From positions 2,560,001 through 2,624,000 of the forward strand of contig CBDCTH010000012.1 of NCBI GenBank assembly GCA_965222155.1: 64,000 bases of DNA, written 5' to 3'. The notes below the pieces were generated by a model. That model was not told the origin of the DNA. It saw only the letters and a program-made list of their open reading frames with translations, and ran no database searches. The translations under genes and the position numbers were made by a program. Within the stretch, counting starts at the first letter, position 1; each line of letters begins with the position of its first letter. This DNA is from Gammaproteobacteria bacterium (GTDB lineage Bacteria; Pseudomonadota; Gammaproteobacteria; Eutrophobiales; Eutrophobiaceae). Shown piece by piece: positions 28,507 through 61,557 of the stretch.

Positions 28507-28682
28507 CAGACGCTACCGCTAAATCGAGGTCAATACAGTGATTCTTGCCGGATTCGAGACAGGGGGGACAGATTTAAATCTGTCCCCCAGGAGTCACGGG
28601 GCCCGTTTCCCTGGGAGGGAGGGCGTCTCGCCCTCCACGAGGGCAGGATGCCCTCGATCCCGGGAGTTAGCGGGAACTGCTG
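28507..28682. mobile_element. 176-bp MITE with an 8-bp target duplication
   Basis: Ends CAGACGCTACCGCTAA / TTAGCGGGAACTGCTG; GCTGGAGG repeated at 28499-28506 and 28683-28690; internal GGGGACAGATTTAAATCTGTCCCC palindrome. Confidence 0.8.
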
Positions 28683-28793: not shown

Positions 28794-29999
28794 ATGAATC
28801 AAGCAATCATTTATGCCGGGGTGCGTTCGCCATTTGGCCGTTATGGAGGCGGTCTGTCAGTGAAGAGGCCGGACGATCTGGCAGCCGCTGTTATCAGGGC
28901 TTTGCTGGACCGAAGTGGTATTGAGAGCAGCCTGGTGGAGGATGTCGTGTTCGGCAACACCAACCAGGCGGGTGAAGATAGTCGAAACGTGGCGCGCAAT
29001 GCCGCCTTGTTGGCCGGCATGCATACATCGACGGGCGGAGCGACCGTCAATCGATTATGCGGCAGCGGCGCGGCGGCAACCCTGGACGCAGCCCGCGCGA
29101 TCAGTTGCGGGCAGGGGCAGTTGTTCATCTCCGGCGGCGTGGAGAGTATGAGCCGGGCGCCCTGGGTACTGAGCAAGGCGGAAACCAGCTTTGATCGCAA
29201 CCAGCAGATGTATGACACTGTTCTCGGCTGGCGTTTCCCCAACAAGTCACTCCTCAAGCAATACGGTGACGACACCATGCCGCAGACCGCGGATAACGTC
29301 GCCAGGGACCTGAACATCAGCCGGGAAGACAGCGATGCCTTCGCGTATGCCTCACAGCAAAAATACCAGGCGGCAAAAGATGCCGGTTTTTACGCGGATG
29401 AACTGGTTGAAATTGAAGTACCGGCAAAACGGCGCAAAGACCCGCCGGTAAAAGTGACGACCGATGAGCATCCCAGGCCCGCTACCACCCTGGAGAAATT
29501 ATCAACCTTGCCCGCCTTGTTTGACGGCGGTGTCGTGACTGCCGGCAATGCTTCCGGCATCAATGACGGCGCTGCGGCGCTGCTGCTGGGTAATGAGGAT
29601 ATCGGTAAAAAGCTGGGTATGACGCCACGCGCACGCATCCTGTCCGGCGCCATCGCCGGGGTTGAACCCCGGGTGATGGGGGTAGGCCCTGTCCCTGCAT
29701 CACAGAAAGCCCTGCAGCGAGCGGGCTTGTCTTTGTCCGATATGGATGTGATTGAGATAAACGAAGCCTTTGCAACCCAGGTACTGGGATGTCTGAAACA
29801 ACTGCAGATTGATTTTCAGGATGAACGGGTCAACCCGAACGGCGGCGCTATCAGTATCGGACATCCGCTGGGCGCATCCGGGGCGCGCCTCATATTGACG
29901 GCCTTACGCCAACTGGAAAATATCCAGGGCCGTTATGCGCTCATTACCATGTGCATCGGCATCGGCCAGGGCATCGCTGTTGTTATCGAACGAATTTAA
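28794..29999 (+). CDS. pcaF: Thiolase, 3-oxoadipyl-CoA thiolase (PcaF/PaaJ) type
   Basis: NQAGEDSRNVAR, NRLCGSG, GWRFPN, NEAFA, GHPLGASG, CIGIGQG. Confidence 0.85.
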   Translation: MNQAIIYAGVRSPFGRYGGGLSVKRPDDLAAAVIRALLDRSGIESSLVEDVVFGNTNQAGEDSRNVARNAALLAGMHTSTGGATVNRLCGSGAAATLDAARAISCGQGQLFISGGVESMSRAPWVLSKAETSFDRNQQMYDTVLGWRFPNKSLLKQYGDDTMPQTADNVARDLNISREDSDAFAYASQQKYQAAKDAGFYADELVEIEVPAKRRKDPPVKVTTDEHPRPATTLEKLSTLPALFDGGVVTAGNASGINDGAAALLLGNEDIGKKLGMTPRARILSGAIAGVEPRVMGVGPVPASQKALQRAGLSLSDMDVIEINEAFATQVLGCLKQLQIDFQDERVNPNGGAISIGHPLGASGARLILTALRQLENIQGRYALITMCIGIGQGIAVVIERI

Positions 30000-42436: not shown

Positions 42437-42521
42437 GGGGACAGATTTAAATCTGTCCCCGCTGTCTTCGAATCCGGCAAGAATCACTGTGTTGACTTCG
42501 AGTTAGCGGGAGCACCTGCTG
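42437..42521 (-). repeat. Partial copy of the 28507 MITE
   Basis: GGGGACAGATTTAAATCTGTCCCC...GAGTTAGCGGGAGCACCTGCTG. Confidence 0.85.
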
Positions 42522-42645: not shown

Positions 42646-44664
42646 ATGAGATCAAGTTCATTAATTCGACGTTATATTGTCTTTCTGGGCGTATGTTTCC
42701 TCTGTGCCTGTACAGGGGAACACACGCCGGACGAAACCGCGGTTCCTGCACCGGTGATCCAAAAGACGATGCTGGAAGCGGGTACCGATACGGATGTCGC
42801 TTATTACGGTTTAAGCCAGGACCTGAAACGAAATTCCGATCTCAGTCAGATCAATACCGAGACGGTGCAAAGACTGGCGCCGTTGTGGACGCTCTCGCTC
42901 GGTGAAAATCACGGCCTTCAAACCCAGCCATTGGTCATTGACGGGGTGATGTACGTCACAACCCATGATTCGACCCATGCTATTGACGCCAGGACCGGCC
43001 GGCAAATCTGGAAAACCTTATCGGAATATTCACAGAAAACAGTGAACTGTTGCGGTTTCGCCAATCGCGGTCTGGCATTCCATAACGGCAAACTGTACAG
43101 GACCAATATCGATAATCGCATCCTGGCGATTGACCCTGTCAATGGCGCTATCCTCTGGGAGAAAAACGTGATCGATCCATCGCTCGGATACAGTATGACC
43201 AGCGCGCCGTTGATTGCAAACGACGTGCTGATTACCGGAATCGGCGGGGCGGAGTTCGGCGCGCCCGGGTTCCTGGATGGCTGGGACACGGAGACAGGGG
43301 AACACCTGTGGCGTTTTAATACGATCCCCGAACCCGGCGAACCGGGCAGTGAAACCTGGCCCGGCGAGACCTGGCGCCAAGGCGGTGGTGGTACCTGGCT
43401 GATCGGTTCCTATGATGCGGAACTTGACCTGGTCTACTGGGGAGTAGGCAATCCGGCGCCCTGGAGCGCACAAAACCGTCGCGGAGATAACCTCTACACC
43501 AGTAGTATGCTGGCTATAAGGCCGAAATCCGGGGAGCTGGTCTGGTATTTTCAATTCACCCCTAATGACACGGTGGATTATGACGGAAACAATGAACCCA
43601 TACTGACTGAACTCCAGGTTGATGGAGAATTAAGGAAAGTACTCATTCAGGCCAACCGTAACGGTTTCTTCTATGTACTGGACAGGACTAACGGAGAATT
43701 CATCGGCGCCAATCCTTTTGTGGAAAAGGTCACCTGGACAGATGGCCTGGATAGCGAAACCGGCAGGCCATCCCGATCCAATTCCATTGAACATATGCTG
43801 GAGACGGGAGAGCCTACCGAAATCTGGCCCACAGCGATGGGCGCGAAAAATCTGGCGCCTATGTCATACAGTCCTGACACGGGACTGGCTTATCTAAACG
43901 CGATTAATATGGGCTGGATATATACACCTGTCCAACAGGAATTCAAGCTCGGCGCCCCCTACTATTCCATTGAATTTGAATGGATAGATACCGATGGCGC
44001 AAAAGGGGAATTAAAAGCCATCGAGCCTTTGTCCGGCAAAACGGTATGGAGTTTTCCGACACAGGTTCCCATGAACGGCGGCACCCTGGTCACGGCAGGT
44101 GATCTCGTTTTTTCCGGTGCCCAGACCGGTGAGTTTTATGCTTTCCATGCGCAGACCGGCGAGAAACTCTGGGAGTATCGCACCGGTTCAGGGATTATTG
44201 CGCCACCGGTTACCTACCGGCTTGACGGCAAGCAGTACGTAGCGATTGCCAGCGGCCTCGGTGGTGTTTACGCGGCGGTATCCGGGGACCCTTATTTAAA
44301 AAATATCAATCCGGGGGGTGCAATCTGGGTGTTTGCATTGAATGATTCCCCGGCGGCGCGGACGCCTGAAGCAACATCCCTGTTGCCTCCGCCCGTTCAT
44401 GATGTTGCAAATCTAATAGCCTCGGCCCAGGTCTCAGAAGGCAGGGTTTTGTACAACCGAAATTGCGCACACTGCCACGGTGTCGATATGGTCACTGCCG
44501 GCAACAATTATGATTTGATCCAATTCCCCAAAAATAGTGAACAACGGTTTATTTCAGCCATCGTCGACGGCAAAGGCAATATGCCGGCCTGGGGGAATAA
44601 GTTGAATCAAACCGAATTGAAAACAATTTATGCTTATGTGAATGCCAAATGTTGCGGGGGATAA
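42646..44664 (+). CDS. PQQ-dependent alcohol dehydrogenase family lipoprotein with C-terminal cytochrome c
   Basis: Lipobox LCAC, vicinal CC, GGAEFG, WGVGNPAPW, DYDGNNE, NRNGFFYVLDR, heme motif CAHCH. Confidence 0.93.
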   Translation: MRSSSLIRRYIVFLGVCFLCACTGEHTPDETAVPAPVIQKTMLEAGTDTDVAYYGLSQDLKRNSDLSQINTETVQRLAPLWTLSLGENHGLQTQPLVIDGVMYVTTHDSTHAIDARTGRQIWKTLSEYSQKTVNCCGFANRGLAFHNGKLYRTNIDNRILAIDPVNGAILWEKNVIDPSLGYSMTSAPLIANDVLITGIGGAEFGAPGFLDGWDTETGEHLWRFNTIPEPGEPGSETWPGETWRQGGGGTWLIGSYDAELDLVYWGVGNPAPWSAQNRRGDNLYTSSMLAIRPKSGELVWYFQFTPNDTVDYDGNNEPILTELQVDGELRKVLIQANRNGFFYVLDRTNGEFIGANPFVEKVTWTDGLDSETGRPSRSNSIEHMLETGEPTEIWPTAMGAKNLAPMSYSPDTGLAYLNAINMGWIYTPVQQEFKLGAPYYSIEFEWIDTDGAKGELKAIEPLSGKTVWSFPTQVPMNGGTLVTAGDLVFSGAQTGEFYAFHAQTGEKLWEYRTGSGIIAPPVTYRLDGKQYVAIASGLGGVYAAVSGDPYLKNINPGGAIWVFALNDSPAARTPEATSLLPPPVHDVANLIASAQVSEGRVLYNRNCAHCHGVDMVTAGNNYDLIQFPKNSEQRFISAIVDGKGNMPAWGNKLNQTELKTIYAYVNAKCCGG

Positions 44665-46792: not shown

Positions 46793-49700
46793 ATGGACAG
46801 CCGCATGGCAATAGACCTGAACGGTCGCGTGATGCGCCGTGGCCTGCCTGACGGGGCAGAGTTCGGCACGGCCAACGCTGCCGGTTGCAGTGCTGACTCA
46901 CTGAGGCGGCCGCTGCGCGGCGTCCCGCGCCCAGCCTCCTTTACCCCCCCCCCATGAGATAACAGGTCGCCGGCGCGGCGCTGCCGCTTCTCCGCGCGCG
47001 CAGGTAGCGGGCGCCGGGAGGGCGTCGGCCAGGACGGGGCTATCCAACCGGTTACGGCGCGGGGTCTTGTGCGCCCTGGCGTTCATGACGCTGATGTGCG
47101 GGCCGACCGTGCCGGCCTGGGCGCAGTCGGTACTTCCCGCTCCGACCCTCACGCCCGGCAATCGGCAGATCACGGTGGAGTGGACTGAACCCAGCGACAG
47201 CGCGGGCCTCAACCGAGAGACTGAAATAGGCTACCAAATCACATACCGCCCCGGCACGACCGGCAATTGGTTGGTCGCCTACAAAGAGGGCACCACCACC
47301 AGCACGACCCTCACGGGCTTGACCAACGGCCAGAGCTACCAGGTGGGAGTGATAGTCATCTATGCCCTTGGGACAGGGCGAAGCCCAGCTGCCTATCCAA
47401 TCGTCAGCGCCACACCCCGGGCGCCCCGGAAGCCCGACGCGCCGGACGCCCCGAGGCTGACGCCCGGCAACGAGCAGCTGACGGTGTCGTGGACCGCCCC
47501 GTCCGACAACGGCGCGGCCATCAGCGACTACGACGTGCAGTACAAGCTGAGCAGCGTCACCGGCTGGACGGATGCCAACTACGACGGCACCGGCACCAGC
47601 ACAACCATCTCCAGCCTGACCAACGGCCAGAGCTACGACGTGCAGGTGCGCGCCACCAACTCTGTGGACTCGAGTGACTGGTCGACCTCCACCACGGACA
47701 CGCCGACGGACGTGGCGCCCGGCAAACCGGCGACCCCGACGGTCACCGTGCTGGGCGCCACCTCGCTGCGGGTAAGCTGGGCGGCGCCGGCCAACACAGG
47801 CAGTGCCCTCACCGGCTACACGCTGCAACAGAGCGCAAACAGCGGCGTCAACTGGAGTACGGTATCGGGCGTGAGCGGGACGAGCCACGACGTGACGAGC
47901 CTGACGCCGGGGACGTCGTATGTGTTCCGGGTACGGGCAACCAACGGTGCGGGGGCCGGAGACTGGTCGGATGCGTCATCGCCGGCCACCCCCGCGGCGG
48001 CACCGGCGGCGCCCGCCATCCCCAACCTCGCGCCCGGCGACGGGCAGCTGACGGTGTCGTGGAGCACGCCGGCCGCCAACGGCGCCGCCATCTCGGACTA
48101 CGACGTGCAGTACAAGCTGGGCAGCGTCACCGGCTGGACGGATGCCAACTACGACGGCACCGGCACCAGCACGACCCTCTCCAGCCTGACCAACGGCCAG
48201 CCCTACGACGTGCAGGTGCGGGCGAAGAACAGCGTGGGCTGGGGCGGCTGGTCACCCAGTGCCAGCGCCACGCCGGCCACCACTGCTACGGTGCCCGCCG
48301 CGCCGGCGCCGGCACCAGCACAACCCTCCCCAACCTCACCAACGGCCAGCGCTACGACGTGCAGGTGCGGGCCAAAAACGCCGTGGGCTGGAGTGACTGG
48401 TCGACCGCCGCCGCGGCGACGCCGGATGCGAAGCCGGGCAAACCGGCGGCCCCGACGGTCACCGTGCAGAGCGCCACCTCGCTACGGGTGAACTGGGCGA
48501 CACCGACCAACACGGGCACTGTCATCACCGGCTACACGCTGCAACAGAGCGCAAACAACGGGACAGACTGGAGTCCGGTGTCGGGCGTAAGCGGGACGAG
48601 TCACGACGTGACGGGCCTGACACCGGGGGTCGCGTATGTGTTCCGGGTACTGGCAACCAATGCGGCGGGGGCCGGGGCCTGGTCGGATTCGTCATCGCCA
48701 GCCACCCCCGCGGCGGCACCGACGGCGCCCGCCATCCCCAACCTCGCGCCCGGCGACGGGCAGCTGACGGTGTCGTGGAGCGCGCCGGCCGCCAACGGCG
48801 CGGACATCTCGGACTACGACGTGCAGTACCGCGCCGGCAACAGTGGCCCGTGGACGAACGCCCACTATGACGGCACCGGCACCAGCACGACCCTCGACGG
48901 TCTGACCAACGGCCAGCGCTACGACGTGCAGGTGCGGGCCAAAAACGCCGTGGGCTGGAGTGACTGGTCGACCGCCGCCGCGGCGACGCCGGATGCGAAG
49001 CCGGGCAAACCGGCTGCCCCGACGGTCACCGTGCTGGGCGCCACCTCGCTGCGGGTGAACTGGACGGCGCCGGCCAACACGGGCAGCGCCCTCACCGGCT
49101 ACACGCTGCAACAGCGCGCGAACAACGGGACAGACTGGAGTCCGGTGTCGGGAGTAAGCGGGACGAGTCACGACGTGACGGGCCTGACACCGGGGACCGC
49201 CCATGTGTTCCGGGTACTGGCCACCAATGCGGCGGGGGACGGGGCCTGGTCGGATTCGTCATCGCCGGTCACCCCCTCGGCTGCGCCGGCGGCGCCCGCC
49301 GCCCCCGCGATCCCGACCCTGAGGCCCGGCGACCGGCAGCTCGAGGTGTCATGGCACGCGCCCGGCAGCGACGGCGGCTCGACCATCACGGGCTACAATA
49401 TCCAGTACCGCGCCGGCGCGAGCGGCGCCTGGACCCGCCACGGCGCCACTGATGCTGGCAGCACCACCACAACCATTTCCGGCCTGACCAACGGCCAGGA
49501 CTACCAGGTGCAGGTGCGGGCGGTGAACGCGCAGGGCGCGGGCCCCTGGTCAGCCAGCGCCACGGCCACGCCTGCGTCCGCAACGACGCCCCCTGAGCCT
49601 GTCACCCCCCCTGGACCCGGCACCAGCACCAGCACCCCCGAAATCACCCGCTTCGAGGCCACGCCACTCAGGGACGGCAAGTCAACCCTGAGTTGGGCGG

Positions 49701-52700
49701 TGAGCAAGAACACGGACGTGCTGAGCCTGGTCGATGACCAGGGCACCATCCTGATAGACCCGGGCGATGGGCTGCCCGCCGGCAACCAGCTGGCGGTCGA
49801 GACCCGTGTGGGCACCGTCTATACCCTGATTGCCGTCAACAGCGAGAGTGGCCTCAGCAGCAAGCCCCGTACCGTCACGGTCAGGGCACCGGCGCCGGTC
49901 AGGCCCACCGTCAGGCCCCCGCCTGAGCCCGTCAATGCTGCGCCCACCGGGGTGATTGTCAGTTGGGTCCCCCCGGCCACGGACGGCATGATTGCCGAGG
50001 ACGTGGACACAAGCACCGGCCGGGTGAAGCTGGCGAACCTGTCCGCCACCGATCCGGACGACAGTCGCCATACCTTCAGCGTCGTCGGCGCGGACATCTT
50101 CGAGATTACCGGCGCCGCGCTCTACCTGAAGCAGGGTGTAGTGCTGGATTACGAGACACAACCACGCCATGGCTTCACGCTCACTGCAACGGATGGCGGC
50201 GGCCTCAGCGTCACCGGCGCTGAGCAGACCCTTGCCGTGACCTATGCCAACGAGGCGCCGACCGAAGTGATTGTCACCTGGGTGCCCCCGGCCACGGACG
50301 GCGCCATCGCCGAGGACGTGGACACGAGCGCCGGGCCGGTGAAGATTGCCGAGCTGTCCGCGGTCGACCCGGATGCCGACGACAGCCACGTCTTCAGCCT
50401 CAGTGATACGACACTCTTCGAGATTGCCGGCACGGCGCTCTACCTGAAGCAGGGTGTGGGGCTGGATTACGAGACGCAGCCACGCCATGGCGTCACACTC
50501 ACTGCAACGGATGGCGGCGGCCTCAGCGTCACCGGCGCTGCGCAGACCCTTGCCGTGACCGATGCCAACGAGGCGCCGACCGAAGTGATTATCGCCTGGG
50601 TGCCCCCGGCCACAGACGGCGCCATCGCCGAGGACGTGGACACAAGTGCCGGGCCGGTGCAGCTGGCCGAGCTGTCCGCGGTCGACCCCGATGCCGACGA
50701 CAGCCACGTCTTCAGCCTCAGTGGCGCGGACATCTTCGAGATTACCGGCGCCGCGCTCTACCTGAAGCAGGGTGTGGGGCTGGATTACGAGACACAGTCA
50801 AGCTATGGTTTCACGCTCACTGCAACGGATGGCGGCGGTCTCAGCGTCACCGGCACTGAGCAGACCCTTGCCGTGACCAATGCCAACGAGGCGCCGACCG
50901 AAGTGATTGTCGCCTGGGTAGCCCCGGTCACGGACGGCGCCATTGCCGAGAACCTCGACACCCGCGCCGGCCCGGTGCAGGTGGCAACGCTGTCCGCCAC
51001 TGATCCGGACGCCGGGGACCAACACCGCTTCACCCTGGAGGGTGAGCAGGCGGCAGTGTTCGAGGTGGCCGGCAGCGACCTGTCTCTCAGGCAGGGCGTG
51101 GTGCTGGACCGTGAGACCCACCCGGCCTACCCCTTTACGGTCGTGGCCCGTGACACAGCGGGGCTGCGCGTCAGTACGGCAGTCGTCCTAGAAGTATCCG
51201 CTGAGACCGATACGCGGGCCCGGGCGCGGCTTAAGCGGGTCAACCGGGCCATTCTCCCGGCATTGTCCCGGGCCCTGGTGGCCGGTACCCTGGACGCCGT
51301 AGAGCGGCGCATTGACAGTGCCGGCGCGGCGCCGGGCGCGGCCACGCCGGCCGAGACTCTGGCGGGGCTGCTGTGGGGGCAGGCTGAGTCCCTGCGTGCG
51401 GGGCGCTGGGCAGAGGTGCTGGGGCGCTCGTCCTTTGCCCTGCGCCTGGACGAGGGGCCCCGCCGCCGGGGGGCTGAACACTATCACCCTGTGGGGCGGG
51501 GGCGATTACCGGCGCCTGTCCGGGGGGGCTGACGACCGGGCAGGGGCCGCTGACCCGGTGCACTGGGACGGCGCCGTGCTGAGCGCCCGCCTGGGGCTGG
51601 ACGCCCGGCTCCGGGACGACCTGCTGGCGGGTCTGGCGCTGTCCTGGGCCAAGGGCGAGTTTGACTACACCGACCGGGGTGCGGCCGGCTACCTGCCCAT
51701 AGAGGGCGCCCATGAAAGCCGGCTGCTGAGTGTCTACCCCTACGTGGGCTGGCACCCCCGGGCCGAGTTAGGTCTGTGGGGCATGGCGTAGGCGAGGTGC
51801 GGCTCCGGGACGCTGAGGCCGGCCGGCAGGCCGCGGACAGTGAGCAGGCCACGGCGGCGCTGGGTGGTCGGGTGCGGCTGTTTGCAGGCAACAGTCTGGT
51901 TGCCGGCGGGGCGACGGTGTTGAATCTCAAGGGTGCGTGGTGGGGCTCGCGCTATGAGGTGGCGGCGGCGGGGTTGATTGAGGGGCTGGCGACGGACGTG
52001 TGGCGGCTGCGCCTGGCGCTGGAGGGCTCGCATGCGCAGCGCCTGGCCGGGGGCGGGACCGTGACGCCTTCGGTGGCGTTGGGGCTGCGCCATGACGGCG
52101 GCGATGGCGTGACCGGCGGCGGGCTGGAGTGGGGCGGCGGGCTGGTCTGGTTTGATCCGGCCCGGGGGCTGCGGGTAGAAGGCTATGGCCGGGCGCTGCT
52201 GGCGCACGCGGGGGACATCGAGGAATGGGGCGTCGGGGGACTGGTGGTGCTGACGCCGGGGACGGACGGGCGCGGGCTGTCGTTCCGTGTGCGCCCGGGT
52301 TGGGGCGTGGTGGACGGCCTGGCTGCCGGGCAGGCCGGGGCCGGCGCTGTTGAGCGGCTCTGGGCGCGGAGCTCGGACGTTGGGGGCAGTGGGCCTGGGT
52401 CACCGTCCCGCGGGGTGCGGTGGGAGACCGAGTTGGGTTATGGGCTGGCGACCGGGGGCGGTCTGCTCACGCCTTATGGGGGCATGGTAGTGGACGGGGG
52501 CGGGCGGCGTTACCGGTTGGGCGGGGTGTTCGAGCTGGGCCGCGCACTGACGCTGAGTCTGGAGAGTGCGCGCCGGGAGGGTGTGTTCGAGTCCCCGGAC
52601 CATGGCCTCATGCTGAGGCTGCGCTACGGGCTGGGGGGTGCGGGGTTGGCGACCCCGGCGCGTGGGTTACACGGGCCGCATACCCTGGGACGCGGCCCCG

Positions 52701-52729
52701 GTTGGGAACAGGACAGCAGTGCCCGCTAA
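46793..52729 (+). pseudogene. Large FN3-repeat/cadherin-repeat autotransporter adhesin, frameshifted
   Basis: Signal AWA-QS; about 9 FN3 repeats (LTVSW..YDVQY..LTNGQ.YDVQVRA); 4 cadherin repeats (LDYE, ATDGGG, NEAPT); C-terminal barrel (LWGGGDYR, GLRHDGGD, TPYG); breaks near 46950, 48310, 51460, 51785. Confidence 0.88.
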
Positions 52730-52886: not shown

Positions 52887-52911
52887 GGGGACGGATTTCA
52901 AATCCGTCCCC
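52887..52911. repeat. GGGGAC-type palindrome
   Basis: GGGGACGGATTTCAAATCCGTCCCC. Confidence 0.8.
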
Positions 52912-53003: not shown

Positions 53004-53087
53004 CCTGATTGTAGAGTCTGTGATTGTAGAGTCTTGCATTTTATTGAATAACTGATTTAATATATCAAAGGAAATAGGGTAAACGTA

Positions 53088-55529
53088 ATGTCGAACATAA
53101 CAAAAACGTCTCAGCGACCGCCGGTACGGAAAAAGACTCTTGCCATTGCGATGTCGGCCCTGCTCGGCGGCGCCCAAGCTGCGGATGCGCAACAGGTGCT
53201 GGAGGAAATCGTCGTTACCGCCACCAAGCGGGAAGCCAACCTGCAGGACATTCCGGTATCAATCACTGCCTTCACTACCGATGATATTCAAAGGCGCGGC
53301 TTCAGGGGCTTGCAGGACTATGCCAGTTATATTCCGGGACTTGCACTCGGGCAGCGCGAACCAGGGGGGAATTCAGTCGTTTTCCGCGGCGTTGCCGCCT
53401 CGGGAATCCAGTTCGGCACCAACCCCTCCAGCGGCGTCTACCTGGATGAACAGCCCATCACCGCCGCCGGCATCAACCCGGACCCGCGCTTGATCGATAT
53501 TGAGCGGGTCGAAGCCCTGAGCGGTCCCCAGGGCACGCTGTTCGGCGACGCGTCACAATCGGGCACCCTGCGGATAATCACCAATAAGCCGGATGCAACC
53601 GAATTCGACAGTTGGATAGATGCCTCCGGTTCACAGGTCGACGGCGGCGACGCCGGCTATGACGTCAGCGCCATGGTCAACCTGCCCGTCAGTGAAAACC
53701 AGCTTGCCATTCGGTTGGTGGGTTTCCATGCGGAAGATGCCGGCTATATCGACAACGTGCTCGGCGCCAGCGCAGGAGGCACTTTTACCAACGCAGACCT
53801 GGTAGAGGATGACGTCAATACTACAGAAACCACCGGCGGCCGGGTCGCGGCGCGCTGGACACCGAATGATGACTGGACCCTGGATATTTCTGCGCTGTAC
53901 CAGGAGACCAATGCCGACGCTTTTGCCGATACCAACATCGAGGTGGGCGGCCTGGAGCAGGTACGCTTCGCCGAGGAAAAACTGAACGAGGAATGGTACC
54001 AGATCGGCCTGACCCTGCAGGGTAACCTGGGCTTTGCCGATGCCCTGGTGCATGCGTCCTATTTCAATCGCGACTTCCGTTATGACGCCGACGGCACCGA
54101 TTACCAGTTTGCATTCAACCAGTTGTTCGATGATGTATATTATGATGTCTACAATTTCGGCGGCGACCCGCAGAACGGATTTGCCATCAATGATATCAAC
54201 AATGACCGCTGGACCGTGGAGGCGCGTTTATCGACGCCTGTTGATTCCGGCAGCAAGTGGTTCGGACTGGTGGGGCTGTTCTACAATCACTCCGAGGAAA
54301 AATCACTGTTTGCTGCCGGGAACGACAGTTTCGCCGGTTCGCCGGGCTTTTACTACCTGGCCTATAACGTTGAATTCAACAACCCGGTCTATATAGATTA
54401 TGACGGGACCATCCCCAACCCGGATTTCGACCCGTATTCTGCTTCCCTGAACGGCCTGCCTCCCGGCAGCTGGGAGGCTAACAGCAACTGGTTTTTCGGC
54501 ACCTATGATGAGACTATCGAGCAGTTCGCCATTTTCGGGGAGATGAGTTTCGATTTTACCGAAAACTTTACAATCACCGCGGGGGGACGCTGGTTCCGGG
54601 TTGAACGTGATTTCCACCTGGTGCAGGGCGGCCTGCAACAGGACGGAATAGAGCCTGACTATGCTACTGATTTCATCGTCACCGATGAAATGGTCAGCGG
54701 ACTGGATCATGGTTTCGTACCCAAGGTAAACCTGACCTGGCGCTATAGTGATGACGACATGGTCTATTTTACCTATTCACACGGTTTCCGTAGCGGGGGC
54801 GGAAACGGGTCGAAGCGTATTTCGGGTATTCCGCGTTCGTACGATTCGGATACCTTGAAGAACCTGGAAGTCGGGGCAAAAACCACCTGGTTTGACGGGC
54901 GATTGCGGGCTAATTTCACCGCTTACATGATGAATTGGGAGGACATACAGGTACAGGTTGAAGATCCCAACCCGCTGGTATTCTCCCTGGGGATTGTCAA
55001 TTTCCCGGCAGCAGAGGTGGACGGCTTCGAGTTTGACTTTGCCTGGCTGCCCGCCGAAGGCTGGGACCTGAGTGGCACCGTTGCCTATAATGATGCAAGG
55101 ATCTCTCAATCAGCCTCGCTGGATTTCCTGGGATTTACCCTTGACGCAGAGGAAGGAAGCAGGCTGCCAATTACCCCGGAATGGAAAGCCAGCCTGTCTG
55201 CAGAGTATACCTTCCCGCGCATGATGTTCGGCGCCGAACCCTACGTGCGGTTTGATTACGCTCACACCGGCGAGTCCATCAATGCCCTGGAAGGGCTTGA
55301 ACCCATCGTATCCCTGGAATCCGATCCGCCGACGACAATCCAGAAGGCTTTTAATGTAGGAAACTTCAGCATGGGGCTGGATAACGAATCCTGGAGTGCC
55401 TCTTTCTACATCAACAACGTCTGGGATGAGCGCGGGACCACATTCGTCAATAACCGCTGGGCCGAACGGCGCTTCGGCGTGAATCAGCCGCGCACCTTCG
55501 GCGTCACTTTCAGAAAAAACTTCAGGTAA
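53088..55529 (+). CDS. TonB-dependent receptor
   Basis: Signal peptide, LEEIVVTATKR, IERVEALSGPQGTLFG, PRTFGV. Confidence 0.95.
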   Translation: MSNITKTSQRPPVRKKTLAIAMSALLGGAQAADAQQVLEEIVVTATKREANLQDIPVSITAFTTDDIQRRGFRGLQDYASYIPGLALGQREPGGNSVVFRGVAASGIQFGTNPSSGVYLDEQPITAAGINPDPRLIDIERVEALSGPQGTLFGDASQSGTLRIITNKPDATEFDSWIDASGSQVDGGDAGYDVSAMVNLPVSENQLAIRLVGFHAEDAGYIDNVLGASAGGTFTNADLVEDDVNTTETTGGRVAARWTPNDDWTLDISALYQETNADAFADTNIEVGGLEQVRFAEEKLNEEWYQIGLTLQGNLGFADALVHASYFNRDFRYDADGTDYQFAFNQLFDDVYYDVYNFGGDPQNGFAINDINNDRWTVEARLSTPVDSGSKWFGLVGLFYNHSEEKSLFAAGNDSFAGSPGFYYLAYNVEFNNPVYIDYDGTIPNPDFDPYSASLNGLPPGSWEANSNWFFGTYDETIEQFAIFGEMSFDFTENFTITAGGRWFRVERDFHLVQGGLQQDGIEPDYATDFIVTDEMVSGLDHGFVPKVNLTWRYSDDDMVYFTYSHGFRSGGGNGSKRISGIPRSYDSDTLKNLEVGAKTTWFDGRLRANFTAYMMNWEDIQVQVEDPNPLVFSLGIVNFPAAEVDGFEFDFAWLPAEGWDLSGTVAYNDARISQSASLDFLGFTLDAEEGSRLPITPEWKASLSAEYTFPRMMFGAEPYVRFDYAHTGESINALEGLEPIVSLESDPPTTIQKAFNVGNFSMGLDNESWSASFYINNVWDERGTTFVNNRWAERRFGVNQPRTFGVTFRKNFR

Positions 55530-55581
55530 GGTCTTTTCGTCAAAATGCCGGCCAGCTGTCGTTCATGTGCAGGCTAATGGT

Positions 55582-56916
55582 ATGACCATGTTCAAAAAAT
55601 GGTTCCAGGATAATGCCATCGAAGAGGTGGAAGTGCTGATCCCGGATATTGCCGGGATGGCCAGGGGAAAGTTTGTGCCGGCGGAACGTTATCTGGCGGA
55701 TAACGGCATCCGTATTGCCAAAGGGCTGTTTACCCAGACCATTACCGGAGATTACATCGAACTGGTTGAGATCATCAATCCTGCCGATATCGATATGGAA
55801 GCCAGGCCGGTAGCGGAAACAAAACGTAAAGTTCCCTGGGCGCCTTACCCGACGGCTCAAATCATCCATGATTGCTATCATCTTGACGGAACCCCCGTGG
55901 AAATTGCCCCCAGGCAGGTATTGAAACGCATACTCGACCTGTATGAGAAACAGGGCTGGCAGGCCGTTGTTGCGCCGGAGATTGAATTTTACCTGGTCAA
56001 GACCAATACCAATGCGGATTTGCCGCTGGAACCCCCAACCGGCCGCTCCGGCCGGCAGGAGCAGGCCCGGCGCACCTTCAGTATCGACGCCTTGAATGAA
56101 TTCGAGAACGTGGTTGAGGATATCTACGATTTTTCAGAACAACAGGAACTCGATATTGAGACGCTCTCCCATGAAGACGGTATTGCCCAGTTGGAGGTCA
56201 ATTTCCTGCATGGCGACCCGATGAGGCTGGCCGACCAGGTGTTTACCTTCAAAAGAACGGTGCGCGAGGCGGCATTCAAGCAAGATATGTATGCCACTTT
56301 CATGGCCAAACCACACCAGCATCAGCCGGGCAGTTCAATGCACCTGCACCAAAGCATTGTAGATAAAAAAACCGGTAAAAACATTTTCGCAAGCAAGAGC
56401 GGCAGGCCCAACAAGCTGTTCAGGAGTTATATTGCCGGCTTACAGAAATACCTGCCCGCAACCATGCCCCTGTTTGCGCCCAACGTGAATTCCTACCGGC
56501 GGATCACCCGTTACTATGCGTCCCCCATCAACACCCACTGGGGTTTCGATAACCGTACCGTCGGCCTGCGTGTGCCGCTGGCGCCGGCCGAGGCCACCCG
56601 GGTTGAAAACAGGGTGCCCGGTTCCGACACCAATCCGTATCTTGCCATCGCCGCGTCACTGGCCGCAGGTTACCTGGGGATGGAAGAAAAACTCGAACCC
56701 ACCAAACCGCTGGAGAGTAGCGCCCATGAACGGGCCATCACCCTGCCCAGGGACATGCATTCGGCATTGAAACTCATGCGGAGATGCGCGCCCGTACGCC
56801 GCCTGCTCGGTGAAGAATTTATCCAGGTCTACAATGCTGTCAAGGAACTTGAATACGAAACCTTTTTCCAGGTTATCAGTTCCTGGGAACGGGAACACCT
56901 GTTGTTGAATGTGTAA
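55582..56916 (+). CDS. Glutamine-synthetase-like gamma-glutamylpolyamine synthetase (PuuA/SpuB type); start uncertain
   Basis: PDIAGMARGK, APEIEFYL, QLEVNFLHG, ATFMAKP, GSSMHLHQS, WGFDNRT, RVENR. Confidence 0.9.
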   Translation: MTMFKKWFQDNAIEEVEVLIPDIAGMARGKFVPAERYLADNGIRIAKGLFTQTITGDYIELVEIINPADIDMEARPVAETKRKVPWAPYPTAQIIHDCYHLDGTPVEIAPRQVLKRILDLYEKQGWQAVVAPEIEFYLVKTNTNADLPLEPPTGRSGRQEQARRTFSIDALNEFENVVEDIYDFSEQQELDIETLSHEDGIAQLEVNFLHGDPMRLADQVFTFKRTVREAAFKQDMYATFMAKPHQHQPGSSMHLHQSIVDKKTGKNIFASKSGRPNKLFRSYIAGLQKYLPATMPLFAPNVNSYRRITRYYASPINTHWGFDNRTVGLRVPLAPAEATRVENRVPGSDTNPYLAIAASLAAGYLGMEEKLEPTKPLESSAHERAITLPRDMHSALKLMRRCAPVRRLLGEEFIQVYNAVKELEYETFFQVISSWEREHLLLNV

Positions 56917-56938
56917 TATATTTGTATATTTTTAATTA

Positions 56939-58306
56939 ATGGATAATTACACTACAAACAGGACCTCAGACTGGCAGGCGGTTGATCGCGCTCACTACCT
57001 GCATTCTTTTACCGATACAAAAGCATTGGCCGAAGAAGGCTGCCGGGTGATCACCCGCGCAGACGGGGTTTATATCTGGGACTCGGACGGGAACCGCCTG
57101 CTGGACGGCATGGCCGGTTTGTGGTGTGTCAACGTGGGTTACGGCCGTAAGGAGCTGGCGGAAGCGGCGTATAGACAACTGCTGGAGTTGCCCTATTACA
57201 ATAATTTCTTCAAGACTTCCCCGCCAACGGCAATTGAATTGGCAGGAGTGCTGGCGCAGGTCACGGCGCCGCATTTAAATCATGTTTTTTTTACGAATTC
57301 AGGTTCTGAGGCTAACGATACCGCATTCAGACTGGTGCGACGCTACTGGGACCTGGCGGGCAAACCCGGAAAAGAGGTGATTATCAGCCGTGACCTCGCC
57401 TACCACGGCAGCACGGTCGCGGCGGCCAGCCTGGGCGGACAGAAACTGATGCATGAACAAGGTCACTTGCCGATACCCGGCATCAGGCATATCGCGCCCC
57501 CGTACTGGTACCGGGACGGAGGTGATTTGTCCCCGGAGGAATTCGGTAAGGCTGCCGCCCGACTGCTGGAACAGGAAATCATCTCATTGGGCGCGGAGCG
57601 GGTTGCCGCTTTCATTGGCGAACCGATTCAATGTGCCGGCGGGGTGATTATCCCGCCGGAAAGCTATTGGCCGGAAATTCAACGCATCTGCAATGAATAC
57701 GACGTCCTGCTGGTCGCGGACGAGGTAATCTGCGGTTTCGGCCGTCTTGGCACCTGGTTTGGTTCCGACTACTACCGGTTGCAACCTGACCTGATGCCGA
57801 TAGCCAAGGGATTATCGTCCGGCTACCTGCCTGTCGGTGGCGTGATGGTGGCGGATCGAATCACTGATTTGTTTATCGCAGAAGGTGAGGAATTCGCCCA
57901 CGGCTTCACCTACTCCGGCCACCCCGCTGCGTGTGCGGTAGCCCTGGCTAATATTGCCATCTTGCGGGATGAGAAAATCGTGGAAAACGTAAGAGATAAC
58001 ACTGGGCCCTATCTTGAACAGCGCTGGAACGAACTCGCGCAACACCCTCTGGTGGGTGAGACGAGAGGCGTCGGTTTCCTCCGTGCATTGGAACTGGTAA
58101 AGAATAAACAATCCCGGGAGTTTTTCGATCCCGTAGGCAAAATCGGACAGATCTGTCGTGATATTTGTTTTAACAACGGCCTGGTCATGCGTGCAATACG
58201 TGACACCATGGTCGTCTCCCCACCCCTGATATTGACGAGAGAACAGATTGACGAACTCGTCGAATTGGTCAACAAGTGCCTGGACTTGACCGCAAGAGAA
58301 CTGTGA
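56939..58306 (+). CDS. spuC: Class III aminotransferase, putrescine--pyruvate (SpuC) type
   Basis: LDGMAGLWCVNVGYGR, SGSEAND, YHGST, DEVICGFGR, AKGLSSGY, HGFTYSGHP. Confidence 0.85.
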   Translation: MDNYTTNRTSDWQAVDRAHYLHSFTDTKALAEEGCRVITRADGVYIWDSDGNRLLDGMAGLWCVNVGYGRKELAEAAYRQLLELPYYNNFFKTSPPTAIELAGVLAQVTAPHLNHVFFTNSGSEANDTAFRLVRRYWDLAGKPGKEVIISRDLAYHGSTVAAASLGGQKLMHEQGHLPIPGIRHIAPPYWYRDGGDLSPEEFGKAAARLLEQEIISLGAERVAAFIGEPIQCAGGVIIPPESYWPEIQRICNEYDVLLVADEVICGFGRLGTWFGSDYYRLQPDLMPIAKGLSSGYLPVGGVMVADRITDLFIAEGEEFAHGFTYSGHPAACAVALANIAILRDEKIVENVRDNTGPYLEQRWNELAQHPLVGETRGVGFLRALELVKNKQSREFFDPVGKIGQICRDICFNNGLVMRAIRDTMVVSPPLILTREQIDELVELVNKCLDLTAREL

Positions 58307-58321
58307 ACAGGAGAGAATAAC

Positions 58322-60145
58322 ATGAGCTGGCAACATCAAATATTACGGGTCAACCTGACCGATCTGAACTGTACAATAGAACCGCTAAACGAGGAATGGG
58401 CGCAATCCTACCTCGGACAACGGGGACTGGGCACCAAGTACCTGTATGAAGAGATAGACCCCAGAGTCGATCCGGTATCTCCTGAAAATAAGTTAATCTT
58501 TGCAACCGGCCCGTTGACCGGCACCATGGCCTCAACCGGGGGGCGCTATTCCGTCATTACCAAAGGCGCATTGACCAATGCCATCGCCTGCTCCAATTCC
58601 GGCGGCCAGTTCGGCGCCGAACTGAAGCTGGCCGGGTATGACCTGCTTATCCTGGAGGGCAAGGCGCCGGAACCCGTTTACCTTTATATCGAAAACGACC
58701 GTGTGCGCCTGCTCCCTGCCGACCACCTGTGGGGCCGGACCGTCTGGGAAACGGAAACGACCATCAAGCAGGCCCACAGCGACCCGCTTATCCACGTCGC
58801 CTCGGTCGGTCCCAGCGCTGAGTATGGCTGCCGTTATGCCTGCGTTGTCAATGATATGCACCGGGCGGCCGGACGTTCGGGTGTAGGCACGGTAATGGGA
58901 TCAAAACACCTGAAAGCAGTTGCCGTCAGGGGCACGAAAGGTCTCAGCGTGTCGGACCCGGAAGCATTTATGCAGGTAGTAAGGAGCACCGCACAAGCTA
59001 TGCGGGAAGACGACGGGCGCAAAGCCTTGACCAAGGATGGCACCATCAGCATGATGGATACGACCAACGTCTACGGCACACTGCCCACCCGGAATTTCCG
59101 CGACGTCCAGTTCGAAGGCGCCGACAAGATAGGCCTGGGCGCGATGAAGGCAGTGAATGAAAACGGCCACTCCAACCTGGTGACAAACAGCGCCTGCTTC
59201 GGCTGCACTATCGGCTGTGGCAGAGTCTGCCGCATCGACCCGGAGCATTTTTCCGTCAAGGACAAGCCGCAATACCACGGCGCCTCCGGTGGACTCGAAT
59301 ACGAAACGGCCTACGCCCTGGGCTCCGGCGTGGGGGTAAGCGACATCGACGCCGCCACCTATTGCGGTTTCCTCTGCAATGAATACGGTATGGACCCCAT
59401 CTCTCTGGGCGGCTCCATCTCCGCGGCCATGGAATTATTTGACATCGGCGCGCTTGATGAATCGGTGACCGGCGGCATCAAACTGGAATTTGGTTCAGCC
59501 GAGGCCTTATGCGCAATGACGGAGGCCGTTGCCAGGGGAGAAGGGTTCGGCCGGGATATCGGCATGGGCTCGAAGTTGTTGTGTGAAAAGTATGGCCATC
59601 CCGAACTTTCCATGTCAGTCAAGGGCCAGGAATTTGCCGCCTATGACGGGCGCAGCATGCAGGGTATGGGCCTGGGATACGCCACCAGCAACCGCGGCGC
59701 CTGTCACTTGCGCGCCGCTCCTTATGAGGATGATTTCACTACCCTGGAACCCGCCGGCAAGGCGCAGGTGGTCAAGGAGACACAGGACTTCATCGCCGCA
59801 GTCGATTCCAGCGGGTTATGCCTTTTCTCAGGCTTCGGCGGCTTTTCCAATGAACTGGTTGCAGGACACATCAACGCCGCCTGTACGGGGGGATGGGACC
59901 TGGAACGTTTGCAGGAAACCGGGGAACGCATCTGGAACCTGGAACGGCAATTCAACCTGGCTGCCGGGTTGACCGCCAGTGACGATACCCTGCCGCCCAG
60001 AATTCTTACCGAGCCGGCTCCCAGCGGCGTGGCAAAGGGATGGGTGTGCAAGCTGGACGAGATGCTGCCGAAATATTACCGGCTGCGCGGCTGGGATGAA
60101 GCCGGCGCACCATCTCCCGAAACCCTGGCGCGGCTCGGACTTTAG
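58322..60145 (+). CDS. Aldehyde:ferredoxin oxidoreductase (tungstopterin AOR family) catalytic subunit
   Basis: SGGQFGAELKLAGYD, AGRSGVGTVMGSK, CFGCTIGC, LEYET, GMDPIS, TSNRGACH, DSSGLC. Confidence 0.95.
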   Translation: MSWQHQILRVNLTDLNCTIEPLNEEWAQSYLGQRGLGTKYLYEEIDPRVDPVSPENKLIFATGPLTGTMASTGGRYSVITKGALTNAIACSNSGGQFGAELKLAGYDLLILEGKAPEPVYLYIENDRVRLLPADHLWGRTVWETETTIKQAHSDPLIHVASVGPSAEYGCRYACVVNDMHRAAGRSGVGTVMGSKHLKAVAVRGTKGLSVSDPEAFMQVVRSTAQAMREDDGRKALTKDGTISMMDTTNVYGTLPTRNFRDVQFEGADKIGLGAMKAVNENGHSNLVTNSACFGCTIGCGRVCRIDPEHFSVKDKPQYHGASGGLEYETAYALGSGVGVSDIDAATYCGFLCNEYGMDPISLGGSISAAMELFDIGALDESVTGGIKLEFGSAEALCAMTEAVARGEGFGRDIGMGSKLLCEKYGHPELSMSVKGQEFAAYDGRSMQGMGLGYATSNRGACHLRAAPYEDDFTTLEPAGKAQVVKETQDFIAAVDSSGLCLFSGFGGFSNELVAGHINAACTGGWDLERLQETGERIWNLERQFNLAAGLTASDDTLPPRILTEPAPSGVAKGWVCKLDEMLPKYYRLRGWDEAGAPSPETLARLGL

Positions 60146-60168
60146 ACAAGGGGCATGCCAAGGATAAT

Positions 60169-60244
60169 CAGCAGGTGCTCCCGCTAAATCGAGGTCAATA
60201 CAGAAGACGGGGGGGACAGATTTAAATCTGTCCCCCAGGAGTCG
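60169..60244 (+). repeat. Partial copy of the 28507 MITE
   Basis: CAGCAGGTGCTCCCGCTAAATCGAGGTCAATACAG...GGGGGACAGATTTAAATCTGTCCCCCAGGAGTC. Confidence 0.85.
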
Positions 60245-60273
60245 AAAAATCCCTATACGATGAGGAAAGTTGC

Positions 60274-61557
60274 TTGACTGGCTTCCCCCAACCCCACTGC
60301 GGTTCCTATTACGCGGCAACTGCGAACGTTACCACTGATTACCCACAGCTTACAGGCGCAAGCAGTTGTGATGTCTGTATCATCGGCGCCGGGTTTACCG
60401 GCATTTCCGCGGCGCTCCAGCTGGCCGAGCGCGGCTATAAGGTCAGTGTCCTTGAGGCGAACCGGGTAAGCTGGGGGGCCTCGGGACGTAACGGCGGCCA
60501 ACTGATAGGCGGCATCAGTGGTGAAGAACGCCTGAAAAAATTCGTGGGCAAGGACGACCCCGAGCTTTTATGGAAGATGCGCTGGGCAGGTCATGAGATT
60601 ATCAGGCAACGTGTGGAGAAATATGCGATCGACTGCGACCTGAAGTTCGGTTACATGGATGTGGCTATCAAAACCCGCCACTGGCGCGCCCTGGAGGAAG
60701 AATACGAGTCCCTGCAACGACCTGATTTCCCCTATGAAACCAGGCTGGTGTCGAAACAGGAAATAACAGGCGTGATAGGCACGGATGCCTATATCGGCGG
60801 CCTGGTCAACATGGCCAACGGCCACCTGCACCCCCTGAACCTGTGCCTCGGTGAGGCGGCGGCGGCAACGCAACAGGGCGCCGTCATATATGAGCAGTCT
60901 CCGGTAGTCCGGTTTGAACATGGCAGCAAACCCCGGGTTCATACCAGAGAAGGCAGCATCACCTGTGATTTCGTCATCCTCGCCGGTAACGCCTATCACC
61001 ACCTGGAAGCACGCCGTCTGAGCGGGGTTGTTTTTCCTGCCGGCAGTTTTATTATCGCTACCGAACCCCTGACGGATGATCAGGTCAATGATATCAATCC
61101 CCTGGACCTGGCCGTATGTGACCCGAATCACGTACTTGATTACTTCAGGCTCAGCGCGGACAAGCGATTATTATTCGGCGGTCGCTGCAACTATTCCGGG
61201 CGGGAGCCGCGCAGCATCCGGAAATCCATTCTCCCGAGAATGCTCAAGATATTCCCGCAATTGAAAGACGTGCGCATTGACTACGAATGGGGTGGTAAGA
61301 TAGGCATTGTGATCAACCGTGTCCCACATGTCGGCAGGCTGGATAAAAACATCTACTACTCCCAGGGCTATTCCGGCCACGGCGTCAACGTCACCCACCT
61401 GGCCGGCCAGGTGGTGGCCGATGCTATCGCCGGCACTTATGAACGGTTCGACGTATTCGAGAAGGTGAAACACTACCGCATCCCCGGCGGCCAATGGGTC
61501 GGCAATCAACTACTCGCCCTGGGGATGATCTACTTTCGGCTGCTGGATCTCCTTTAA
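60274..61557 (+). CDS. puuB: FAD-dependent oxidoreductase, gamma-glutamylputrescine oxidase type
   Basis: SYYAATAN, IIGAGFTG, GASGRNGGQ, GHLHPL, DYFRLSAD, GYSGHG. Confidence 0.85.
   Translation: MTGFPQPHCGSYYAATANVTTDYPQLTGASSCDVCIIGAGFTGISAALQLAERGYKVSVLEANRVSWGASGRNGGQLIGGISGEERLKKFVGKDDPELLWKMRWAGHEIIRQRVEKYAIDCDLKFGYMDVAIKTRHWRALEEEYESLQRPDFPYETRLVSKQEITGVIGTDAYIGGLVNMANGHLHPLNLCLGEAAAATQQGAVIYEQSPVVRFEHGSKPRVHTREGSITCDFVILAGNAYHHLEARRLSGVVFPAGSFIIATEPLTDDQVNDINPLDLAVCDPNHVLDYFRLSADKRLLFGGRCNYSGREPRSIRKSILPRMLKIFPQLKDVRIDYEWGGKIGIVINRVPHVGRLDKNIYYSQGYSGHGVNVTHLAGQVVADAIAGTYERFDVFEKVKHYRIPGGQWVGNQLLALGMIYFRLLDLL

Follow-up and report, generated by a model that had tools for sequence, protein, structure and literature searches.

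Introduction

The Spu/Pau system of Pseudomonas aeruginosa comprises the transaminase SpuC, the PauA ligases, the PauB oxidoreductases, the aldehyde dehydrogenase PauC and the hydrolase PauD, and in Escherichia coli the genes puuA, puuB, puuC and puuD lie in one cluster, the step from aminoaldehyde to acid being carried out in Pseudomonas and E. coli by PauC, KauB or PuuC. The part of PauC, an aldehyde dehydrogenase, in the polyamine catabolism of P. aeruginosa is treated in a published study (PMC12006823). The tungstopterin family of aldehyde oxidoreductases (AOR) includes AorABC of Aromatoleum aromaticum (AOR_Aa), and the one AorB-type enzyme studied is portrayed in the structural work as a detoxifying enzyme of broad range, able as well to take on the oxidation of aldehydes in bulk (PMC10413684). 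The present analysis concerns a 64,000-nucleotide stretch (the window) from a Gammaproteobacteria bacterium (assembly GCA_965222155.1; 4.55 Mb in 12 contigs; contig CBDCTH010000012.1, here C12; window C12:2560001-2624000), in which a gene for an AorB-type AOR lies within a putative polyamine operon.

The reading favoured here, to which a probability of roughly one in two is given, is that a Spu/Pau-type polyamine (putrescine/agmatine) operon recruited a stand-alone AorB-type aminoaldehyde oxidiser once and is co-expressed with it. The initial annotation of this DNA had gone further and proposed an undescribed amine catabolic route; the operon with its AOR is real, but what it represents is a known pathway altered in one step, by a non-homologous enzyme, and not a self-contained new system, and this enzyme is not bound to the pathway. 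Full-text searches, partly among the best-ranked matches only, found no paper that links an AOR-family enzyme to polyamine catabolism.

An AOR gene in a conserved operon

Across 53088-61557 of the window, five consecutive open reading frames (ORFs) lie on the + strand with intergenic gaps of 37, 22, 15 and 128 bp (Table 1), and encode, in the order and at the places first described, a TonB-dependent receptor, a glutamine synthetase (GS)-like ligase, a SpuC-like transaminase (AT), the AOR and a DAO-family flavoprotein. The AOR gene begins 15 bp past the transaminase stop and has, as had been claimed, a ribosome-binding site of its own, GGAGAG, placed directly after the TGA stop and 7 nt before the ATG. 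The operon contains neither an AorA-like nor an AorC-like gene, and PF00171, the aldehyde dehydrogenase (ALDH) family, has no match in the window, all 11 matches in the genome lying outside it. The annotated lack of an NAD-dependent ALDH in the operon is thereby confirmed, and the annotated lack of partner subunits holds for the operon but not for the genome, which carries a canonical aorA-aorB-aorC set at C12:2329196-2332952.

Recurrence of the arrangement was examined in 160 loci, namely the 80 best-matching of 558 confirmed AOR relatives in reference genomes and the 80 best-matching of 582 in metagenomes, some of which are the same contig present in two collections. GS-AT-AOR recurs in six of the 160 (L007, L009, L014, L074, L089 and L091), with AOR identities down to 71%, and the adjacency of the AOR gene to spuC- and puuA-like genes is thus not unique to this genome; the L089 copy carries frameshifts, and the L091 contig stops at the AOR. 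Transaminase and AOR genes are 14-15 bp apart in the window, and equally so in L007, L009, L014 and L074, the four loci in which this distance was measured, and the AOR gene overlaps the flavoprotein gene by 1 nt in L007 and by 11 nt in L009. The flavoprotein gene directly follows the AOR gene in L007, L009 and L089, an amidase-signature protein intervenes in L014 and L074, and the AOR-flavoprotein pair is also found in L085 and on the short contig L006. Divergence has kept a similar pace across the genes of the cluster, its L074 members being identical to those of the window at 66% (GS), 73% (AT), 73% (AOR) and 69% (DAO). Chance adjacency of AOR and amine genes is ruled out by the conserved spacing and the recurrence.

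AOR genes of the 160 loci fall into three patterns. In the first, AORs 56-63% identical to that of the window are flanked by AorA and AorC genes (20 loci and the genome's own copy), flanks seen in this pattern only; the second consists of stand-alone copies, which are considered further below; the third consists of AORs 71-97% identical in the gene context of the window. A 73-row AOR tree, built from every pattern-3 AOR (12), every AOR linked to AorA/AorC (21) and 40 random representatives of the other 102 (the frameshifted AOR of L089 and that of L146, which has an internal stop, were left out) gathered the 12 polyamine-context AORs in one clade, with a Shimodaira-Hasegawa-like approximate likelihood-ratio test (SH-aLRT) support of 99, and of 96 in a 37-row tree. 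This clade is sister to a stand-alone group flanked by ABM and ThiS genes (SH-aLRT 96, 73-row tree). By this phylogeny the stand-alone AOR was recruited into the operon once, and, since full-operon loci branch first within the clade, the incomplete loci have arisen by later loss.

Identity of the encoded proteins

AOR-family genes number four in the window genome. The domains of the operon AOR are full length (AFOR_N profile positions 2-199 of 199 and AFOR_C 2-385 of 385), and its best solved match is 8C0Z, AorB of the A. aromaticum AorABC complex (E 2.8e-233), followed by 9mqx and then by the Pyrococcus furiosus AOR, 1aor (E 7.5e-154). The iron-sulfur ligands lie in two motifs, Cys-x2-Cys-x3-Cys (292-299) and Asp-x-x-Gly-Leu-Cys (495-500), which match their counterparts in the alignments with 1aor and 8c0z; we take the ligands of the P. 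furiosus enzyme to be Cys288, Cys291, Cys295 and Cys494, a numbering checked by counting along the 1aor alignment. The four [4Fe-4S] cysteines are present in 12 of 12 clade members and are invariant in the alignment used (A1), as are R75, N92, R181, Y327, E328, Y441, H462 and D495. The Arg/Asn/Arg residues that hold the pterin phosphates, the Glu-Tyr-Glu stretch and the active-site Cys-His are identical in the window protein, as are the pterin/magnesium and catalytic residues of the P. furiosus AOR, presumably Arg76, Asn93, Arg182, Tyr312, Glu313, His448 and Asp489. Identity extends to the AorB active-site residues Glu331, His464 and Tyr443, as named in the structural description (PMC10413684). 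Across the 12 clade members the cofactor and catalytic residues are conserved, apart from two mismatches to the search patterns in their flanks. By these residues the window AOR is identified as an AorB-type catalytic subunit with an intact cofactor site; the metal may be tungsten, from which molybdenum is not distinguished by sequence. Seven positions split the 12 polyamine-context AORs from the 102 other stand-alone copies, as a lead only; one such clade-specific position is Asp470, eight residues past the catalytic His.

The transaminase is the only operon protein above a curated NCBIfam cut-off (NF005682), and it matches over its full length a solved putrescine aminotransferase (6gwi, E 2.5e-196), a polyamine:pyruvate transaminase (9j4z, E 5.9e-186) and 6hx9 (E 8.2e-185), matches which assign it to the SpuC/omega-transaminase subfamily. 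With the gamma-glutamylputrescine synthetase model (cut-off 650) the ligase reaches 185 bits, and it falls below every equivalog cut-off, those of the true GS models included; we assign it provisionally to the SpuB/PauA/PuuA type of gamma-glutamyl-polyamine synthetases. The flavoprotein reaches no equivalog or specific NCBIfam model, its nearest solved relatives are distant glycine and sarcosine oxidases, and it is taken to be a PuuB/PauB-like gamma-glutamyl-amine oxidoreductase. No NCBIfam model at cut-off was found for the receptor, orthologues of which, 90-91% identical, lead the cluster in L007 and L009, a 61% identical orthologue lying beside GS-AT in L197. TonB-dependent receptors are abundant in this genome, where tblastn with the operon receptor gave more than 70 aligned segments.

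Polyamine context and alternative substrates

The context of the operon points to polyamine and agmatine utilisation, by the SpuC-type relatives of the transaminase together with two further sets of genes. An agmatinase gene (444 bits, cut-off 302) is the next gene in L007, L014 and L074, lies just beyond a flavoprotein remnant in L005, and in the window genome stands 15 kb beyond the flavoprotein gene. PotG/H/I-like genes occur upstream in L014 and L074, the potA subfamily being reached at 408 bits (cut-off 355.6). The polyamine character read from the operon at the outset is thus borne out. The proposal of TonB-mediated uptake fares less evenly: a receptor gene does head the operon, but it is confined to one lineage, and others have an ATP-binding cassette (ABC) transporter.

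It could be argued that the operon acts on other amines, such as aromatic or biogenic monoamines, and that transaminase and AOR form an amine-to-acid pair, as AOR_Aa does for the products of benzylamine and phenylalanine. The transaminase family is broad and its solved relatives include general omega-transaminases such as 4a6t; the ligase and the flavoprotein reach no equivalog cut-off; an outer-membrane receptor is unusual for small polyamines; and the best substrates of AOR_Aa, in the kinetic results drawn upon here, are phenylacetaldehyde and benzaldehyde (PMC6365974). Weighed against an agmatinase above cut-off that adjoins the cluster in relatives, the transporter genes just described and best solved transaminase matches that include putrescine and polyamine:pyruvate enzymes, this explanation is judged decidedly unlikely. 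Further from probability still, and hardly to be credited, is a biosynthetic cluster in which the AOR runs in reverse and supplies, from a carboxylic acid, an aldehyde that is then aminated by the transaminase. The two genes are adjacent, and AOR_Aa is described in the same portion of the literature as reducing benzoate at very low rates with strong reductants (PMC6365974); yet thermodynamics disfavours this step, genes for a low-potential donor are missing from the neighbourhood, and the uptake genes, agmatinase, gamma-glutamylation-type ligase and flavoprotein all indicate catabolism.

Several neighbouring features were noted around these genes. The operon is parted from the agmatinase gene by a 15 kb insertion (seen in L223, C12:2624001-2640000, which follows the window) that contains an AAA_14/DUF4143 gene, IS21 istA/istB, a REP-associated transposase, a 955-aa DNA methylase, a 674-aa GNAT-domain protein and a 1043-aa ResIII helicase-like protein, and that looks like a restriction/defence island. 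L005 has lost the receptor, GS and AT genes, and a BREX BrxL gene stands in their place. Six related loci (L009, L014, L074, L089, L091 and L197) encode, divergently before GS, a 188-aa Asp/Asn beta-hydroxylase-like protein (PF05118), whose counterpart in the window genome is unlinked (C12:3118729-3119271). A second amine-type cluster, without an ALDH, is present at C12:2478001-2494000 (L241), with a GS paralogue, a class III transaminase, two amine-oxidase-like flavoproteins, a GCV_T aminomethyltransferase, a Rieske oxygenase, a BetI-type TetR regulator and a solute-binding protein.

Retention of the AOR without the amine genes

Against the favoured reading stand a number of observations on relatives of the operon, on the rest of the genome and on electron transfer and expression. 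Of 400 class genomes scored, 39, the window genome (G000) among them, have an orthologue of the ligase (E <= 1e-100), and 20 regions around such orthologues were fetched. A SpuC-like transaminase (58-72% identical) directly follows GS in 11 of these, a second GS paralogue adjoined by a flavoprotein homologue (39-47% identical) is found alongside in eight, an AOR gene in none of the 20, and an ALDH gene within the cluster stretch in four, so that most such clusters have no gene for aldehyde oxidation. GS-AT is therefore a common module of which an aldehyde-oxidising gene is no regular part; the assumption that an ALDH is to be expected at this spot does not hold, and the AOR has been added to the module in a single lineage. 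Because the association arose once, the loci that share it are not independent cases.

The AOR gene has also outlasted the amine genes. In L005 (AOR 96% identical), residues 390-455 of the transaminase (the last 66) remain together with a flavoprotein that keeps its first ~149 residues, L085 retains a 15% remnant of the transaminase, and L008, L010 and L011 carry the AOR alone. Wherever amine genes were lost the AOR is intact with its motifs, and since this has happened in at least three lineages the enzyme is not tied to the pathway alone, a point on which the initial annotation needs correcting. Genome G361 has an AOR that is 75% identical and that the tree places immediately outside the clade (support 93); its neighbours are genes for acyl-CoA and thiamine-diphosphate enzymes, and it is unlinked from that genome's own GS-AT pair, which is on another contig with the 61% receptor orthologue and an AspH-like gene. 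The 102 full-length stand-alone AORs of the second pattern, 64-71% identical to that of the window, are without AorA and AorC genes and have varied, often housekeeping neighbours, their usual flanks being a divergent ABM-domain gene before and a ThiS/MoaD-like gene after the AOR.

The genome, moreover, has other means of oxidising aldehydes. The 11 PF00171 matches lie in about 10 places and correspond to about nine ALDHs, the nearest match (C12:2454050-2455438) being about 106 kb before the first base of the window. None of the eight ALDHs scanned, among which a 1044-aa ALDH-domain protein is not counted, reached the cut-off for aminobutyraldehyde dehydrogenase, PuuC (850) or succinate-semialdehyde dehydrogenase. 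One of them, a generic ALDH flanked by transposases (C12:2454005-2455504), could carry out aminoaldehyde oxidation, and the others scanned were assigned to aromatic, valine, lysine or phenylacetate pathways; as to a puuC elsewhere, then, the genome offers no ALDH at the PuuC cut-off but one generic candidate. A PuuD/PauD-type hydrolase is not in the operon; a C26 peptidase similar to gamma-glutamyl-GABA hydrolase is encoded at C12:2024240-2025022, its score of 169 bits falling short of the cut-off (266).

These observations lend weight to an alternative in which the AOR is a general aldehyde scavenger that landed in the operon by rearrangement and is expressed by harmless read-through, the real aminoaldehyde dehydrogenase being an NAD-dependent ALDH elsewhere. 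The survival of the AOR after deletion of its neighbours, the varied surroundings of the closest other stand-alone AORs, the unlinked copy in G361, the generic ALDH and the 16 of 20 GS clusters without any aldehyde-oxidising gene would all be expected from a scavenger, and detoxification is the role proposed for AOR_Aa in the portion of its description drawn upon (PMC6365974). Conservation of the 14-15 bp spacing and of the overlap with the next gene down to 73% AOR identity, and the parallel divergence of the whole cluster set out above, speak however against this explanation, as does its overlap with the favoured reading: even a scavenger, if made along with enzymes that form aldehydes, would oxidise what they produce. 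The scavenger alternative is accordingly regarded as possible, though somewhat doubtful.

Within the canonical aorABC set the AorB is 59% identical to the operon AOR and is flanked by an AorA-like gene with 4x[4Fe-4S] and an AorC-like flavoprotein gene, a second such enzyme in the same genome that again weakens the case for a dedicated one. In that region (L222, C12:2324000-2338000) aorABC is divergent from genes of a pyrroloquinoline quinone (PQQ)-dependent alcohol dehydrogenase system, including a binding protein and a beta-propeller protein (341 bits, cut-off 287), which suggests an alcohol-to-acid route. Two small ORFs after aorC (92 and 83 aa) have no Pfam or NCBIfam match, and the labels aorD and aorE could not be assigned to them. 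As regards metal supply, modABC was found above cut-off, and the search for a tungstate transporter (tupABC) yielded no more than a lone TupA-like binding protein, which is below its cut-off (236 bits, cut-off 400) and has no adjoining permease or ATPase, a result which argues neither for nor against the use of tungsten.

Electron acceptor and expression

An electron-transfer partner is not encoded in the operon. Among 401 class genomes, 57 have an AorA orthologue (E <= 1e-45) and 55 an AorB-type gene (E <= 1e-150), and an AorA orthologue is present in 14 of 15 genomes with a stand-alone copy, the window genome included (G000, G361, G129, G319, G152 and G401-G410). It is found at 72-83% identity in five of five pattern-2 genomes and at 85-98% in four of five pattern-3 genomes; G405, the genome of L074, for which completeness is not established, yields only partial AorA matches of 41-42%. 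Four of four sampled genomes with an AOR copy at least 68% identical also hold AorA and a second copy that is 58-60% identical. These 15 genomes are related and were picked by the feature, so that the co-occurrence is no statistical test, and it would follow equally from docking on AorA and from a common requirement for cofactor maturation.

It is conceivable, if unlikely, that the stand-alone AorB can take the place of the canonical one as catalytic head of the AorA/AorC electron wire, whose genes are 290 kb distant, and that when induced by polyamines it docks on the AorA filament and passes electrons from aminoaldehydes to NAD+. Should this be so, it would constitute a natural case of subunit swapping and would make polyamine catabolism tungsten-dependent in these uncultured Gammaproteobacteria; in the parts of the 8C0Z structure paper that bear on it, subunit swapping figures as an engineering idea only (PMC10413684). 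The operon flavoprotein as redox partner of the AOR, in the place of AorC, is less likely, as its homologues pair with GS paralogues in genomes that lack the AOR and as it has no Fe-S domain.

Metatranscriptome contigs from three runs in two studies, 90-99% alike to the window, cover parts of the receptor gene and all four enzyme genes. One crosses the receptor-ligase junction (55405-55608), and two, one per study, link the end of the AOR gene to the start of the flavoprotein gene through a spacer of 30 nt, as compared with 141 nt in the window. These contigs are assemblies from relatives, and the libraries may hold DNA, so that they attest presence in RNA libraries and not a single transcript; they are a weak hint that the operon, which would be co-transcribed in the model proposed here, is expressed.

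Control region, spacers and other features of the window

Upstream of the operon GATTGTAGAGTCT is present as two direct copies, at about 53007-53019 and 53022-53034, and is followed by a putative promoter composed of TTGCAT (53034-53039), an 18-nt spacer and TAATAT (53058-53063). The TTGCAT...TAATAT arrangement is kept 5' of the receptor gene in L007 and L009, where the direct repeat of GATTGTAGAGTCT is not. A consensus scan for promoters and terminators gave sites no commoner than in shuffled sequence and did not list this site, and is thus uninformative on the borders of the operon. The flavoprotein gene starts with TTG, preceded by GAGGAAAG. A palindrome of the repetitive extragenic palindromic (REP) type (GGGAC-GATTT...AAATC-GTCCC), of which the genome holds 178 copies, 4 of them in the window, lies in the spacer between the AOR and flavoprotein genes; relatives are without it at this junction, and in L007 the AOR stop overlaps the GTG start of the next gene, for which reason the 128 bp spacer of the window is attributed to insertion of the palindrome. 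A fragment of a REP-associated tyrosine transposase is found just beyond the end of the window (L223 65-565).

Table 1. Coordinates of the operon genes and associated elements in the window
Feature	Position	Strand	Description
TonB-dependent outer-membrane receptor	53088..55529	+	813 aa, first gene of the operon; Pfam Plug and TonB_dep_Rec_b-barrel
Glutamine-synthetase-like ligase	55567..56916	+	449 aa; Gln-synt_C 344 bits
SpuC-like amine:pyruvate (omega) transaminase, class III	56939..58306	+	455 aa; Aminotran_3; NF005682 762 bits (cut-off 510)
AorB-type aldehyde oxidoreductase, tungstopterin AOR family	58322..60145	+	607 aa; AFOR_N 260 bits, AFOR_C 413 bits
DAO-family FAD oxidoreductase	60274..61557	+	427 aa; PF01266 235 bits
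Upstream control region	53007..53063	+	sequence reading; putative promoter role
REP-like perfect palindrome between AOR and flavoprotein gene	60213..60234	.	sequence reading
REP-like palindrome copies in the window	28565-28586, 42438-42459, 52888-52910, 60213-60234

Elsewhere in the window, a segment at 47067-52729 has 68-72% G+C in a background of 52-60% and encodes two very large fibronectin-III/cadherin repeat proteins, weakly like MXYO-CTERM-anchored proteins, and a 317-aa ORF without a family that has a homologue in L005. A subunit of a xanthine-dehydrogenase-family molybdenum enzyme and a quinohaemoprotein (PQQ and cytochrome c) alcohol dehydrogenase are encoded at 29996-32323 and 42646-44664, respectively.

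A proposed model of polyamine catabolism with an AOR step

The data permit a model in which amines enter through the TonB-dependent receptor, or in other lineages through a PotGHI-type ABC transporter, and in which the SpuC-like transaminase would convert free diamines to aminoaldehydes, while the GS-like ligase and the DAO-type flavoprotein may together yield gamma-glutamyl-aminoaldehydes. The co-translated AOR would then oxidise these aldehydes to acids, either gamma-aminobutyric acid (GABA) or gamma-glutamyl-GABA, and perhaps act further on, on succinic semialdehyde. The AOR is probably broad in specificity, in which case it would still be useful once the amine genes had been lost. AOR_Aa oxidised every aldehyde tested in the substrate table of its description, a list in which aliphatic aminoaldehydes do not figure (Table 3 of PMC6365974).

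If this model is correct, the place of the PauC/PuuC aldehyde dehydrogenase is taken by a metalloenzyme unrelated to it, and polyamine turnover comes to require a trace metal. Bacterial AorB-type AORs are without a firmly assigned pathway, and the copy in an amine operon offers a concrete and testable physiological role, just as the stand-alone copies and the single AorA that co-occurs with them offer a testable route by which such copies shed their electrons.

Comparison with known systems

The operon AOR shares with A. aromaticum AorB (8C0Z) the Pfam domains, the Fe-S cysteines and the Glu/His/Tyr positions of the active site, and both are of a mesophilic bacterial lineage. It differs from AorABC, as this is set out in parts of two papers (PMC6365974; PMC10413684), in being embedded in an amine operon without adjoining aorA, aorC or MoaD-like genes; AorABC is recognised by aorA upstream and aorC downstream of the catalytic gene, and neither adjoins the window AOR. 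Compared with the AorBs linked to such genes, it falls in a separate clade of stand-alone copies that is sister to the linked ones. The ABM/ThiS-flanked stand-alone AorBs of Gammaproteobacteria and Burkholderiales, which seem not to have been described before, are 64-71% identical and likewise lack an adjacent AorA or AorC, but differ in their other neighbours and in having no amine genes.

The window operon resembles the Puu system in encoding a ligase, a flavoprotein and an aldehyde-oxidising enzyme together, whereas its proteins are far below the cut-off of, or do not match, the gamma-glutamylputrescine synthetase and PuuC models, a transaminase is included, and neither a regulator nor a PuuP-type importer is seen in the operon. 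From the Spu/Pau system it departs in the aldehyde step, which would fall to an AOR-family enzyme and not to a member of the ALDH superfamily, in the uptake by a TonB-dependent receptor and in the absence of a PauD-type hydrolase from the operon. With Spu/Pau it nonetheless has in common a GS-like ligase followed by a SpuC-like transaminase, a DAO-type flavoprotein and the same logic, by which an amine is converted to an aminoaldehyde and this to an acid.

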